A stretch of 64,000 bases of DNA from a phage. Under the pieces are notes generated by a model. That model saw only the letters and a program-made list of their open reading frames with translations, ran no database searches and was not told the origin of the DNA. Positions within the stretch are counted from its first letter, which is position 1; every line of letters begins with the position of its first letter. The translations under genes and the position numbers were made by a program. Below, one piece after another: positions 269 through 24,016 of the stretch. The DNA lies in NCBI GenBank assembly GCA_026110335.1, contig GCA_026110335.1_3055.1. One strand, 5' to 3'.

Positions 269-1129
269 TTACACCGCCATTTTTCCTTTCAAGACACCGT
301 GGGACTGATAATCTTTGAGAACGAAATCTTTAGGCCTGAGTTTAAGAACATATTCCAATTGTTCTTTAGTAGAAAGATAACGGAATTTATAAGGCAATCC
401 GCCTATTACCAGTTCACAAAGCTCTTTAGGTTCACGACGCAAAATTTCTTTACATTGTTCGACATGATTCATATAGATATGAGTATTACCACCGGAAAAT
501 ATCAAATCTCCTGGAATAAGATTACACATCTTAGCTACAATATGAACGAACGCAGCATATGATGCAATGTTGAATGGCAAGCCCAAGAACACGTCAACAC
601 TTCTTTGATACCACTGCAAATCCAAATAGCCATTACGCACATTAAACTGATAGAACATATGACAAGGCGGTAATGACATATATTTAAGTTCAGCTGGATT
701 CCATGCAGAAACAATTTGACGTCTATCATTTGGTAGTTTTTTAATACGATCAACAACTTCTATAATTTGGTCTACACCGCCAAAATCACGCCATTGTTTT
801 CCATAAATTGGACCAAGTTCACCACTATGATATCCTAAATCTTTTGCTTGATTTTCGTAATTTTCATCCCAGACTGTTTTGCCTTGAATTAATGAATTGT
901 GTTGAATTAATCGTAAATCATTGACATTTGTGCTTCCTGATAAAAACCATATTAGCTCAGCAATGCAAGCTTTCCAGGCGAGCTTCTTAGTTGTTACCGC
1001 AGGAAAACCTTTAGTTAAATCCCAGCGTAATTTAGTACCGAACAAAGCAATTGTTCCTGTGCCTGTTCGGTCATCGGTTTCATAGCCATTTTCAAAAATG
1101 TCTTTAATTAAATCTTGGTATTGTTTCAT
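269..1129 (-). CDS. td: thymidylate synthase, intronless
   Basis: 286 aa; TS catalytic-cysteine motif '[10 protein letters not shown]'; co-linear over full length with T4 Td as recalled; uninterrupted ORF, so no group I intron. Confidence 0.95.
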
Positions 1130-1174: not shown

Positions 1175-2371
<1,197 letters not shown>

Positions 2372-2381
2372 ATTATTTTCC

Positions 2382-2624
2382 TTAAACAGACTTTTTCACA
2401 ATTTTCCAATCAGCTTTAAACTGTTCAACGTCAGAATGGTAAATCCAAAATCCTGCGCTTTCTCCATCCTCATAAAGAGGGCATCCATCGCATTCATCTT
2501 CCCATCCAATGTCACGTAAAAGATGTTCAGCTTTTTCAACAAGTTCAGAATCTTTACCGATGATATTAAAATACCATTTACCTCTAACTTCCGAATCTTT
2601 GATGCTCTGACGTTGTAATCTCAT
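2382..2624 (-). CDS. hypothetical protein
   Basis: 80 aa; ATG with GAGGAG SD; own early promoter immediately upstream. Confidence 0.55.
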   Translation of the reverse strand: MRLQRQSIKDSEVRGKWYFNIIGKDSELVEKAEHLLRDIGWEDECDGCPLYEDGESAGFWIYHSDVEQFKADWKIVKKSV

Positions 2625-2682
2625 TTTATTCTCCTCAAGTTGATAAGGCTATAGTATCATTACCATAGCCTGTTGTAAACAT

Positions 2683-2910
2683 TTATTTTTGAATTAAGCC
2701 CATATAAAATTTAGCATCTTCAGGATACATGCCATCACAATACTCATTGGTCATAAAACTGATAAGGTCTTCAAGAGGACCTTGGACTTCAATTTGAATA
2801 CTAAAGAATTGAGTATCTTTAATGTAAGCCATACTCAAAGAAGGATAACGATTGCGGATAACTTCGTAAGTGTATTCAAAATCAACAATATCAATATTAA
2901 CCTTAGCCAT
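2683..2910 (-). CDS. hypothetical protein, paralog A of tandem pair
   Basis: 75 aa from '[13 protein letters not shown]' (GAGGAAAATAAA-ATG); clearly paralogous to the 3394-3621 product; track start at 2949 is GTG inside the promoter. Confidence 0.55.
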
Positions 2911-2940
2911 TTTATTTTCCTCATGTAGTTGATAGGGTAA

Positions 2941-2969
2941 TAGTATCACACTACTACCCTACTGTAAAC
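2941..2969 (-). promoter_or_regulatory. early promoter for paralog A
   Basis: GTTTAC -35 (overlapping the stop of the 126-aa ORF), TGATACTAT-type -10. Confidence 0.45.
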
Positions 2970-3349
2970 TACTTTTTGAAAGTTTTTCGCAAAAGTTCAA
3001 TGATTTCATCTACATTGTTTTCGTCTACAATGCAGTGAATTTTTGTTACGCCAGAAACCGGGTCTTTGACTTCATCTTCTTCAGAAGTCGGTTCTTTATA
3101 CTCACGAAAACAATGAAATTCGTCTTCGCAAATTTCTAAAAGTCTATCTTTGAGGTAAAAATGCTTTCCATTTGCGCATTCAATGTGTTTTACTGCTTTA
3201 TATCCATTAGCGACGGAAACTTCTTTAACTTCAAACCATCCGCCATTATCTCGAATGGCTTTAACTATTGATGAATTAGAACACGGACTATAATTAATAA
3301 ATGTATCAATAAGTCTTGGAATAAGTTCATACTTTTTACCAGTATACAT
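2969..3349 (-). CDS. hypothetical Cys/His-containing protein
   Basis: 126 aa; ATG with GAGGAAAA SD; 5 Cys and 4 His ('HIECANGKH', 'EDEFHCF', 'KIHCIV'); no promoter of its own, sits between the paralogs. Confidence 0.55.
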   Translation of the reverse strand: MYTGKKYELIPRLIDTFINYSPCSNSSIVKAIRDNGGWFEVKEVSVANGYKAVKHIECANGKHFYLKDRLLEICEDEFHCFREYKEPTSEEDEVKDPVSGVTKIHCIVDENNVDEIIELLRKTFKK

Positions 3350-3393
3350 TGCGTTTTCCTCATTTTAATAGGGGCTTGATAGCCCCTTGATAA

Positions 3394-3621
3394 TTACTGT
3401 TCAATAAATCCTGTGTAAAATTCTACATCTTCAGCATCCATACCGTCGCAGTATTCATTAACCATAAACTGTTTAAGACGATTTAAAGGACCTTCAATAA
3501 CAACTGAAACATTACAATTAGGATCATTTAGTGCGCTTATGATACTAAGTTCAGGATAACGATTACGAATAATTTCTTCAATATATTCAAAATCAACAAC
3601 ATCAATATCAATTTTAGCCAT
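3394..3621 (-). CDS. hypothetical protein, paralog B of tandem pair
   Basis: 75 aa from '[13 protein letters not shown]' (GAGGAAAATAAT-ATG); shares 'NRYP', 'EGPL', 'NEYCDGM' with paralog A. Confidence 0.55.
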
Positions 3622-3675
3622 ATTATTTTCCTCTTTAATCATCAGCAGTATTGCCGATAGTTGTATAGTACCATA

Positions 3676-3704
3676 AAGCTTTATGCTTGTAAACCGTTTT
3701 GTGA
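3676..3704 (-). promoter_or_regulatory. early promoter for paralog B
   Basis: GTTTAC -35, spacer with ATAAAGCTTTAT palindrome, TGGTACTAT -10. Confidence 0.45.
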
Positions 3705-3714
3705 AAAAATTTTA

Positions 3715-3744
3715 AAATAAAAAAGGGGGACCTCTAGGGTCCCC
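3715..3744 (-). terminator. rho-independent terminator after gene 32
   Basis: hairpin GGGGACC-n5-GGTCCCC then U-run on the minus strand. Confidence 0.6.
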
Positions 3745-3766
3745 GATTAATTAGTAATATAATCTA

Positions 3767-4675
3767 TTAAAGGTCATTCAAAAGGTCATCCAGGTCCGTG
3801 TCATCAGCACTAGATGAACTGCCAGAGCTTGAACTCATAAAATCATCTTCAGTTTTTGTATTGAAGTCATCAACATTGAATGCATCCAAATCATCAGCAA
3901 CTTTATCAGCTTTCTTAGCGGCAGTTGCTGCGGCACCACCCATAGCAGCAGTTCCCATAACTTGACTGAACTTAGTGCTCAGTTCTTCAAATGATTTAAA
4001 TTTATCTTTAGAAGTCATTTCAGAAAGGTCAACCATTTGTTCGAACAGTTCTTTCTGGAAAGATTCATCATCAATGTTTGGAATCGCAGATTGATTCAGG
4101 AATTTAGATTCGTCGTAGTTACTAAAACCAGAAACTTGTTTAACTTTCAGTACAAAGTTAGCACCTTCCCATGGACAAGTTACATCAACCGGAGTTTCAC
4201 CCATTTCAACATCAACCGCAATCATTGCATTGATTTTATCCCAGATTTTCTTACCGAAACGGTATTTAAATACTTTACCTTCGTTTTCTGGAGCAGCTGG
4301 GTCTTTTACTACAAGAATGTTAGCCCAGTAAGAAGTTTTACGTTTAACAAGACTGTACTCTTTATTGTCAGTGTTATACAAATCATTTTTACTGATGTAC
4401 TGACATACTGGACAAGAATCGTAATCACCGTGGGTAGATGAACAGTTTTCAATATACCATTTACCATTTTTCTTGAAACCGTGATTTACAAGAATTGCGA
4501 ATGGTGCTTGTTCATCATTTTTAGACGGAAGAAAACGAATTACTGCTTGACCGTTACCCGCATTGTCGAGTTTCAGTTTCCACTCGCCTTTATCTTCAGA
4601 AGAAAAACCACCTTTATTTCCAGCCAGTTTAGCCATTTGTGCAGCGAGTTCAGCAGTAGATTTACGTTTAAACAT
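3767..4675 (-). CDS. 32: single-stranded DNA-binding protein gp32
   Basis: 302 aa; N-terminal 'MFKRKS'; zinc subdomain '[12 protein letters not shown]'; acidic Ser/Asp-rich C-terminus; matches T4 gp32 as recalled. Confidence 0.95.
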
Positions 4676-4745
4676 TTTTATTTCCTTTTTAATTTAATTA
4701 ACAGTTGGTGCTATGACGATGTATGACCTCATAGCTGGTCAGTGA
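4676..4745 (-). promoter_or_regulatory. gene 32 translational operator (pseudoknot plus AU-rich leader)
   Basis: minus-strand 'GACCAGCUAUGAGGUCAUACAUCGUCAUAGCAC' forms two interleaved stems, followed by repeated UUAAA up to the SD. Confidence 0.7.
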
Positions 4746-4774
4746 GATAATTATAATCTATTTATAATAAGCAA

Positions 4775-5428
4775 TTAATACTTGCAGGATTTCACAGTTT
4801 CAATGAAAACACTTTTGGCTTTCTGTGAATCAATATTTAAAATTTTTCTATAAGCCTTTAACTTTATAGAATAATTATTCCAGACTAAATTATCAGTCTG
4901 TTCATCATGTTTATCAATTATATTTAAAAACGAATCAAGCAAGATAAACGTCTCAAACGAAATTATATTCGATTGAAGCAGTTTAAAAATATAACTTGAT
5001 TGAACTTTTGGATTATACTCAAAGATTTCTTTAAAAGCAGAAACTTCAACTTTTTTACTAAAATAATAAATGTTGCGAATATCTTCTTCAAACTTAAATT
5101 TAATTTGCTTTAAGCGTCCGATATATTCACGATAAAACACAAGTGCATCAGCGTCAGAGATGTCACCAATCCAAGCATCCTGGTTAGCAACCAGATTGCT
5201 TATAAAGATTAAAGCAAGTTCCTTTAATTTATATTTTTCTGATAACTTCTGGAAAAAATACTTATCCCTTCGCTTTTGATAAGCGGCATCAGACACCCGC
5301 ATGCACCAATTATACTTAATTACATCATACTTTCCATTCATATGTTGTTTTATCATTAAGTATAATTTATAAACTGATTTACCATCAATATATCTTTCAC
5401 CACCAGCAGGCATGCGGAGTTTAATCAT
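4775..5428 (-). CDS. 59: helicase loader gp59
   Basis: 217 aa; position between 32 and 33; length and sequence match T4 gp59 as recalled. Confidence 0.85.
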   Translation of the reverse strand: MIKLRMPAGGERYIDGKSVYKLYLMIKQHMNGKYDVIKYNWCMRVSDAAYQKRRDKYFFQKLSEKYKLKELALIFISNLVANQDAWIGDISDADALVFYREYIGRLKQIKFKFEEDIRNIYYFSKKVEVSAFKEIFEYNPKVQSSYIFKLLQSNIISFETFILLDSFLNIIDKHDEQTDNLVWNNYSIKLKAYRKILNIDSQKAKSVFIETVKSCKY

Positions 5429-23452: not shown

Positions 23453-23695
23453 TTTCTGTTCCTCCGTAGTTGATAGGGTAATAGTACCACAAAGGAACAG
23501 TCTTGTAAACAACTTTTTTAAAAATATTCGTAATAAATGTGAATACCAACTACTACCGCTGAAACCTGTGCAACCCACCACGCGCAAGCAATAAGTACAG
23601 AATTCAAAATTTTCATAATAACCTCATCACAAAAGTAAATGTTAAACAAATTACTGGAATACTAATTAACCAAACAAAACACCACCACAATGAAC

Positions 23696-23986: not shown

Positions 23987-24016
23987 ATAGTACCACAGTC
24001 CTTGTGGTATGTAAAC
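23987..24016 (-). promoter_or_regulatory. early promoter with palindromic spacer
   Basis: GTTTAC, spacer TACCACA-n5-TGTGGTA, TGGTACTAT -10. Confidence 0.45.

Follow-up and report, generated by a model that had tools for sequence, protein, structure and literature searches.

The window, by which we mean the whole 64-kb stretch of phage DNA that was analysed, contains two homologous ORFs of 75 aa on either side of an ORF of 126 aa. Did the two small genes arise by duplication of one gene in place, or did they come together in another way? The preliminary description of this DNA proposed a tandem duplication, in a small module shaped by dosage or diversifying selection. Although real and non-random, the sequence features belong to known genes in a known hyperplastic region, and the earlier interpretation as a whole was partly supported.

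Genes and predicted promoters of the locus

The phage is T4-like, a Tequatrovirus, and the window includes its gene 32-frd hyperplastic region. According to their Pfam matches, the two 75-aa ORFs, the 126-aa ORF, and an 80-aa ORF are the T4 genes frd.3, frd.2, and frd.1. All genes of the locus (2625-3750) are on the minus strand, which was absent from the preliminary description; its coordinates were all correct. From about 4700 to 260 on this strand, the order is gene 32, frd.3 (copy B), frd.2, frd.3 (copy A), and the DUF5417 protein of 80 aa, followed by an 81-aa ORF, frd (dihydrofolate reductase), a 123-aa ORF, and td. With the predicted signals included (Table 1), the layout is gene 32, terminator, early promoter, copy B, hairpin, frd.2, early promoter, copy A, early promoter, and frd.1. 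JB75 has an annotated terminator at the place equivalent to the gene 32 terminator of the window.

Table 1. Features of the gene 32-frd.1 interval in the window
Feature	Position	Strand	Description
Gene 32	3767-4675	minus	
Gene 32 intrinsic terminator	3726-3744	minus	GGGGACC-loop-GGTCCCC, then T-run; directly upstream of the copy B promoter
Copy B early promoter (predicted)	3665-3694	minus	GTTTAC-N15-TGgTACTAT; palindrome CATAAAGCTTTATG between -35 and -10
frd.3 copy B	3394-3621	minus	75 aa; resident Tequatrovirus allele at the canonical site adjoining gene 32
Hairpin between copy B and frd.2	3370-3387	minus	Conserved and GC-rich, GGGGCU-AUCA-AGCCCC, no U-tract; -12.9 kcal/mol, z -2.3; putative attenuator or RNA-stability element
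frd.2	2969-3349	minus	126 aa; Pfam PF03197 FRD2
Tequatrovirus-type frd.2/frd.1 PeSL	2932-2969	minus	Now upstream of copy A; predicted promoter 2940-2969
Upstream crossover interval	2925-2936	minus	Shared CCTATCAACTAC
frd.3 copy A	2683-2910	minus	75 aa; very probable Dhakavirus/Gaprivervirus-type xenolog
Donor-type frd.3/frd.1 PeSL	2638-2682	minus	Very probably arrived with copy A; now upstream of frd.1
Downstream crossover interval	2621-2637	minus	Shared TGAGGAGAATAAAATGA; RBS and start of frd.1
frd.1	2382-2624	minus	80 aa, DUF5417, Pfam PF17438; Tequatrovirus-type recipient flank

The homology of the two 75-aa ORFs was confirmed. The proteins are identical at 38 of 75 positions (51%) without gaps (BLASTP E 9e-29), and both matched Pfam PF05798 (Phage_FRD3) over residues 1-75 of 75, copy A with 123.4 bits and copy B with 110.9 bits, while the gathering score of this family is 28.1 bits. 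As DNA, the two ORFs agree at about 70% of positions, with 82% identity in the 5' 92 nt that include the RBS. Both copies have the common RBS context that had been described, GAGGAAAATAA(A/T)ATG. An ATG at 3642 in the frame of copy B would give an ORF of 82 aa, and it has no SD.

Three sites on the minus strand have the form TTTACA-17-TACTAT with TG at -15/-14. They precede copy B (3665-3694), copy A (2940-2969), and frd.1 (2651-2680), and they agree with the early promoter consensus of PST and T4, TTTACW-N17-TAYWAT (PMC4122927). The pattern GTTTAC-N15-TGnTAYWAT has 11 matches in the window, all on the minus strand, whereas 0.01 would be expected by chance. Thus, each frd.3 copy has its own predicted early promoter (GTTTAC-N15-TGnTACTAT), as had been claimed. 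The -35 GTTTAC of the promoter at 2940-2969 overlaps the stop codon of frd.2. It had also been claimed that the 126-aa ORF is promoter-less, and its 44-nt upstream spacer indeed contains the hairpin only. Over the 40-44 nt that align, JB75, T4, and REP4 have exactly this spacer (100% identity), and the segment 3622-3766, which holds the copy B promoter, is 96.6% identical to T4.

The intergenic regions match the published description of promoter-early stem-loops (PeSLs), which consist of a stop codon/AT-rich tract, a promoter of the sigma-70 type, a stem-loop that overlaps the hexamers or lies between them, an SD, and ATG. PeSLs are concentrated in hyperplastic regions and have been implicated in indels and mini-circle formation (PMC2839356). 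Besides the sigma-70-like promoters of the T4/PST consensus at the three sites, we found stable and conserved stem-loops in or over the promoters. Upstream of copy A, the spacer and the -10 lie within a 14-bp stem (2932-2962; -24.1 kcal/mol, z -4.6). Before frd.1, an 11-bp stem (2646-2671) overlaps the -10 (-14.7 kcal/mol, z -2.3). The palindrome in the copy B promoter is weaker than these two stems. The stem arms differ between the PeSLs and show compensatory changes (GGCT/AGCC, GGGTA/TACCC, and GTCT/AGAC). The PeSLs are also the boundary of a gene indel between close relatives, a 286-bp insert in the window compared with JB75, T4, and REP4. An Rfam search for a hidden RNA gene at the locus gave a chance match to SNORD45 only (E 0.78).

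We infer promoter use, read-through into frd.2, and attenuation by the stem-loops from these elements. Host sigma-70 RNA polymerase would transcribe each cassette immediately after infection, as the consensus suggests. Transcripts that start at the copy B promoter would continue into frd.2, so that the two genes are presumably co-transcribed. The stem-loops might act as attenuators and also as portable homology for further shuffling.

Origin and junctions of copy A

T4, JB75, and REP4 have a single frd.3 in the order 32-frd.3-frd.2-frd.1. JS98, VR7, and VR5 also have a single frd.3, but the order is 32-frd.2-orfX-frd.3-frd.1, with frd.3 directly upstream of frd.1. Copy B is thus at the site of the first group, and copy A is exactly at the site of the second. 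The frd.3 region of Dhakavirus (JS98, JS10, and VR5) and Gaprivervirus (VR7) has 89-93% DNA identity with 2625-2968 of the window. Copy A together with its downstream promoter is 89-97% identical to the version of these two genera and 70-79% to the Tequatrovirus versions. Copy A itself is 89-92% identical to the former (91.7% to VR7 and VR5, 89.5% to JS98) and 70-76% to the latter, and for the promoter spacer at 2625-2682 the identities are 93-97% (JS98, VR7, and VR5) and 79% (JB75 and REP4).

The flanks have the opposite affinity. For frd.1, identity is 95-97% with Tequatroviruses and 74-76% with Dhakavirus/Gaprivervirus. The spacer at 2911-2968 is 94.8% identical to the frd.2/frd.1 spacer of JB75, while its matches in the other two genera (78-90%) are partial or non-homologous. 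frd.2, copy B, and gene 32 are of the Tequatrovirus type, with 66-77% identity to Dhakavirus/Gaprivervirus where there is any match, and neither the hairpin spacer at 3350-3393 nor the segment 3622-3766 has a match there. Copy B is 99.6% identical to frd.3 of JB75 and 96.9% to that of REP4.

Synonymous divergence agrees with this picture. Between copy A and frd.3 of Dhakavirus/Gaprivervirus dS is 0.29-0.41 (0.33 for VR7), whereas for the adjoining frd.1 it is about 1.8-2.7 (1.77 for VR7). Between copies A and B it is about 1.05, which is near the value for T4 and JS98 (0.94). Among sequenced phages, no donor exceeds about 93% nucleotide identity. Therefore, the actual donor is unsampled, or the transfer was not very recent.

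The junctions could be placed precisely. When JB75 was aligned to the window, the unaligned stretch was 2694-2907, which corresponds to copy A, and JB75 2023-2094, its frd.2/frd.1 spacer, aligned twice, at 2622-2693 and at 2908-2980. Therefore, the insert is bounded by direct repeats 286 bp apart. At the upstream junction, the spacer before copy A is of the recipient type through the stem GGGTAGTA...TACCC and of the donor type from ACATGAGGAAAATAAAATGG on, which places the crossover in the shared 12 nt, with recipient-type sequence 5' and donor-type sequence 3'. This interval is identical in all 10 two-copy contigs that have the upstream flank; in L019, which ends nearby, it has a 1-base difference. 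At the downstream junction, the spacer before frd.1 is of the donor type through ...TATCAACT, and frd.1 is of the recipient type from its second codon. Here the switch of identity is sharp and takes place within the shared 17 nt. A second type of downstream junction was found in L010, L011, L014, and L016, where the crossover is in TATCAACT and recipient-type CAACTACTGAGG follows downstream. In these four contigs both exchanges are at the same position of the spacer, as the single-site integration of a circle carrying the gene and one spacer would give. The two downstream variants indicate more than one event or later recombination.

At the sequence level, the comparison between genera showed both the junctions of copy A and its Dhakavirus/Gaprivervirus-like origin. 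Copy A is very probably a xenolog, a Dhakavirus/Gaprivervirus-like frd.3 that was imported as a 286-bp cassette of one gene and one PeSL. Since the genera keep frd.3 at different sites, before frd.1 or beside gene 32, recombination would have stacked both versions in one genome during a mixed infection by a donor-like phage and a Tequatrovirus. One exchange would have taken place downstream of the promoter stem-loop, within the 12 nt that separate it from the RBS, and the other at the RBS/ATG of frd.1. The route may have been a double crossover or the integration of a PeSL mini-circle, and the data fit either.

At the same junction, T4 carries a hydrophobic micro-ORF of 22 aa, and Jbel carries an ORF of 86 aa.

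Spread of the cassette and alternative explanations

In the collection of deposited phages, 734 records carry FRD3 in 738 places, and thus at most 4 records have two FRD3 matches. Most Tequatroviruses align to 2100-3800 of the window in two pieces, with 85-87% covered. VEc74 was the only one of the 734 deposited genomes identified with the layout of the window at high identity, in a count by junction queries that is partial because megablast extended through the divergent flanks. In the assembly collection, the exact copy A protein was found in 37 blocks. We read 23 contigs, and each of the 10 places listed had the layout gp32-FRD3-FRD2-FRD3-DUF5417. The cassette is present in at least 10 other contigs, in which the neighbouring alleles varied. 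Among the two-copy contigs, copy A is 98.2-99.6% identical at the nucleotide level, while the canonical copy is 81-100% and frd.2 is 86-99.5% identical. Since copy A is nearly uniform while its neighbours vary, the cassette has essentially one origin and has come to occupy many different recombinant backgrounds of Tequatrovirus. Copy A of VEc74 differs from that of the window by 5% synonymous change, and none of the differences is nonsynonymous.

These data bear on whether frd.3 was duplicated in situ beyond frd.2, with dosage or diversifying selection acting as the copies diverged. The two ORFs are homologous and 711 bp apart, they have similar promoters and RBSs, and no other member of the FRD3 family was found elsewhere in the window, all of which a duplication would explain. 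Yet copies that were duplicated in place should be mutually closest or of the same lineage, and they are neither. Copy A is closer to frd.3 of Dhakavirus/Gaprivervirus than to copy B, its adjoining promoter is of the donor type too, it sits at the frd.3 site of those genera, and the dS between A and B equals the divergence between genera. Two matches are moreover present in no more than 4 of the 734 deposited genomes. Duplication in place is thus hardly credible, and a protein identity of 51% is unfit for the dosage reading. The preliminary description had itself named single-copy relatives with the 126-aa ORF elsewhere as evidence against its reading; this is largely what we found, as relatives are mostly single-copy, but frd.2 is not elsewhere and keeps its place.

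A different history would start from a T-even coliphage with two copies, of which Tequatroviruses lost the frd.1-proximal one and Dhakavirus/Gaprivervirus the 32-proximal one, while the lineage of the window kept both. We consider this very unlikely, although it would explain why each genus has its own frd.3 position, and although each copy is intact and shows purifying selection. Copy A (dS 0.29-0.41) and its PeSL (93-97%) are much closer to Dhakavirus/Gaprivervirus than the adjoining frd.1 is (dS 1.8-2.7, 74-76%), with a sharp switch within 17 nt. Copy A is also 98-99.6% identical across backgrounds whose neighbours differ by up to 18%, and few Tequatrovirus isolates have two copies. Finally, the cassette could be a neutral or selfish passenger that was inserted by chance through PeSLs and persists without benefit, so that a functional reading of two alleles would be unnecessary. 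PeSL-flanked genes are frequently gained and lost in hyperplastic regions (PMC2839356, PMC4122927), other small inserts are present at the same junction (the T4 micro-ORF and the Jbel ORF), and T4 remains viable with an amber mutation in frd.2 (Kim et al. 2025, PMC12152347), which indicates that genes in the frd region are dispensable in the laboratory. Against this, copy A has changed only synonymously relative to VEc74, its dN/dS relative to the donor types is 0.14-0.17, and it is intact in many contigs with reshuffled neighbours. We consider a mere passenger improbable. The data suggest that copy A is maintained, although recency could give the same picture.

The import of a cassette remains the preferred reading. 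It is highly likely that the apparent duplication is the insertion of a xenologous cassette by the known mechanism of PeSL shuffling and not a new kind of system. The explanation as a whole, which comprises the imported cassette, PeSL recombination, expression, and function, is quite likely. Because the insert is a divergent allele of a resident gene, the outcome mimics a duplication. An apparent pair of phage paralogs can thus arise when two genera keep one gene at different positions and recombine, and this calls for caution when duplication, dosage, or diversifying selection is deduced from raw sequence. The locus is also a clean natural case of PeSL-mediated transfer between T-even genera, with junctions located to 12-17 nt, two variants, and many Tequatrovirus backgrounds.

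The FRD3 and FRD2 proteins and known systems

The AF2 model of FRD3 (pLDDT 95.5) has the order beta-alpha-beta-beta-alpha-alpha, and copy A is acidic (12 D/E and 6 K/R). The conserved blocks of the family are residues 1-23, GPL, NEYCDGM, and EDxxFY, while the variable columns, residues 24-43, form the beta2-beta3 hairpin. The family is small, with 8 cluster representatives among 1.84 billion proteins in a full-library HMM search. Two of the 8, P0043 and P0047, are repeat proteins and look spurious or share a short motif only. Tequatrovirus frd.3 falls into at least three allele classes, the T4 type, the JB75/B type, and the Jbel type. One database sequence, P0010, looks like a chimera of the T4 type and the A type. 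All pairwise dN/dS values are 0.04-0.44, which indicates purifying selection, rules out gene-wide positive selection, and gives no positive sign of an arms race. The suggestion of diversifying selection was weakly borne out by the deep allele classes and the variable hairpin, but not by the dN/dS values.

Searches for the function of FRD3 gave little. BFVD matches were FRD3 homologs from other Tevenvirinae and unknowns and nothing else, a profile search of PDB found no solved structural relative (best E 0.82), NCBIfam gave no meaningful match, PHROGs gave an entry of 'unknown function' only, and the papers searched contained nothing on frd.3 function. The mRNA of T4 frd.3 is among the most abundant NAD-capped phage RNAs, and thus the gene is expressed early in T4. 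Tentatively, FRD3 might be a small acidic ferredoxin-like protein, restricted to T-even phages, that binds a host or phage macromolecule early, and two alleles may widen its targets or hosts. Our best guess, which has weak support, is that FRD3 is an accessory protein that binds a target early and owes its specificity to the variable hairpin. It is conceivable but rather doubtful that FRD3 confers specificity in a conflict between host and phage early in infection, for instance by inhibiting a host defence or a takeover target that it would recognise through the variable beta2-beta3 hairpin, and that phages gain breadth when they stack genus-divergent alleles via PeSLs. If this were true, the two-copy lineage would be an adaptive 'allele-stacking' variant and not a neutral mosaic.

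The 126-aa ORF has the FRD2 profile. Its model (pLDDT 84) has an N-terminal SH3/LSm-like barrel of five strands, a disordered acidic linker, and a C-terminal helix, which is invariant in FRD2. This agrees with the placement of Frd.2, GoF, and MotB.1 in the LSm-like fold family; RNA binding by that family is a published hypothesis and is hypothetical for Frd.2 (Kim et al. 2025, PMC12152347). The ORF contains 5 Cys and 4 His as had been claimed, which hinted at metal binding. Across the family, however, H105 is invariant and C106 nearly so, whereas C23, C58, C74, C80, H55, H63, and H79 vary, and there is no CxxC. We therefore rejected a zinc-finger-like metal-binding site. The gene is deeply polymorphic (37-98% identity across 758 records). 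A co-adapted FRD3-FRD2 pair was not supported either, because frd.3 alleles assort independently of frd.2 alleles, and in Dhakavirus/Gaprivervirus a further ORF lies between the two genes. As deeply polymorphic early genes, frd.3 and frd.2 may have host-specific roles that are worth testing.

Compared with T4 Frd.2, the 126-aa protein is 65% identical, and it is strongly different in the N-terminal domain. Its Cys/His content is specific to the allele and is not a feature of the Frd.2/GoF/MotB.1 family. Compared with T4 frd.3 (NP_049853; PF05798, 'uncharacterized 8.8 kDa protein in frd-Gp32 intergenic region'), both copies in the window are full-length members of 75 aa, and the T4 protein shares 68% of its residues with copy A and 69% with copy B. 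Copy B has its position in common with T4 frd.3, and also its promoter and the gene 32 terminator upstream of it. While T4 and almost all relatives have one frd.3, the window adds a Dhakavirus/Gaprivervirus-type allele at a second site.

The closest known system is that of the PeSLs, mobile regulatory cassettes in T4-type phages (Arbiol et al. 2010, PMC2839356; Comeau et al. 2014, PMC4122927). In the window, promoter and terminator function is predicted from sequence and folding. The order of the intergenic unit is the same here, the locus is likewise a hyperplastic region, and the indel is exactly one small gene and one PeSL between PeSL repeats. The junction type of L010, L011, L014, and L016 is the expected product of single-site integration of a PeSL mini-circle. 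Two differences stand out. The crossovers are in the 3', RBS-proximal part of the unit and not in the promoter hexamers, and the insert is not an ORFan but a second, genus-divergent allele of a gene that the recipient already has.

Possible mosaic structure and doubling of frd.2

FRD2, the 126-aa product of frd.2, is conserved unevenly along its length. In the FRD2 alignment (A4), alleles that are only 37-40% identical over the N-terminal domain stay near-invariant over the C-terminal ~27 residues, and in the window this C-terminus reads GVTKIHCIVDENNVDEIIELLRKTFKK. Because the C-terminus is so constant despite the divergent N-terminal domains, the alignment suggests that frd.2 is a mosaic gene, or that the C-terminus is a constant interaction module adjoining the promoter-early stem-loop (PeSL) spacer. 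In JS98 (L004), frd.2a and frd.2b lie side by side; in its genus, Dhakavirus, the doubled gene is frd.2 and not frd.3.

The junction upstream of frd.1

Copy A, the frd.3 gene of Dhakavirus/Gaprivervirus type, occupies the PeSL/ribosome-binding-site junction between frd.2 and frd.1 in the window. In T4 (L003, NC_000866) a hydrophobic micro-ORF of 22 codons, MFAPYIMAAVMLVCLYLLIKAC, is found at exactly this junction and is preceded by its own SD; it is absent from the RefSeq table for NC_000866 among the features shown. We compared the spacer upstream of frd.1 in four two-copy contigs (L010, L011, L014, and L016) with that of the window and of L009, L012, L013, L015, and L017-L019. The same cassette (286 bp, copy A and one PeSL) has two junction variants, CAACTACTGAGG and CAACTTGAGG. 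The two variants imply either that the cassette was inserted twice or that recombination took place later within the PeSL.

FRD3-like sequences elsewhere

The metagenomic FRD3 protein P0010 (82 aa) is T4-type over its N-terminal two thirds and copy A-type over its C-terminal third, and it looks like an intragenic recombinant of frd.3 alleles. Another metagenomic protein, P0047 (454 aa), contains the motif GMNAEDARYYAGL in four tandem repeats. This motif resembles DGMDxEDAEFYMGL of the FRD3 C-terminal block, a likeness that may reflect chance or a short motif in common. Tblastn reported FRD3 at two places in Salmonella phage Jbel (PP942088), only one of which is within the 32-frd region examined.

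Other features of the window

The strict early-promoter pattern GTTTAC-N15-TGnTAYWAT has eight additional matches in the window, every one of them on the minus strand; two of these eight are near neighbours and have rows of their own in the table. We also compared the td and segG positions of the window with those of loci L009-L018. The td gene of the window (286 aa) has no intron, and segG is absent between genes 32 and 59. Among the two-copy contigs that otherwise resemble the window, several have the I-TevI intron, a 210-aa ORF where T4 has segG, or both.

Coordinates of the features discussed
Feature	Genome	Position	Strand
Micro-ORF	T4	4016-4084	minus
frd.2a and frd.2b	JS98	2112-2870	
FRD2 C-terminus	window	2969-3050	
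Eight additional early-promoter matches	window	17876-51446	minus
Neighbouring early-promoter match	window	23481-23510	minus
Neighbouring early-promoter match	window	23987-24016	minus
td	window	269-1129	
Interval between genes 32 and 59	window	4676-4775
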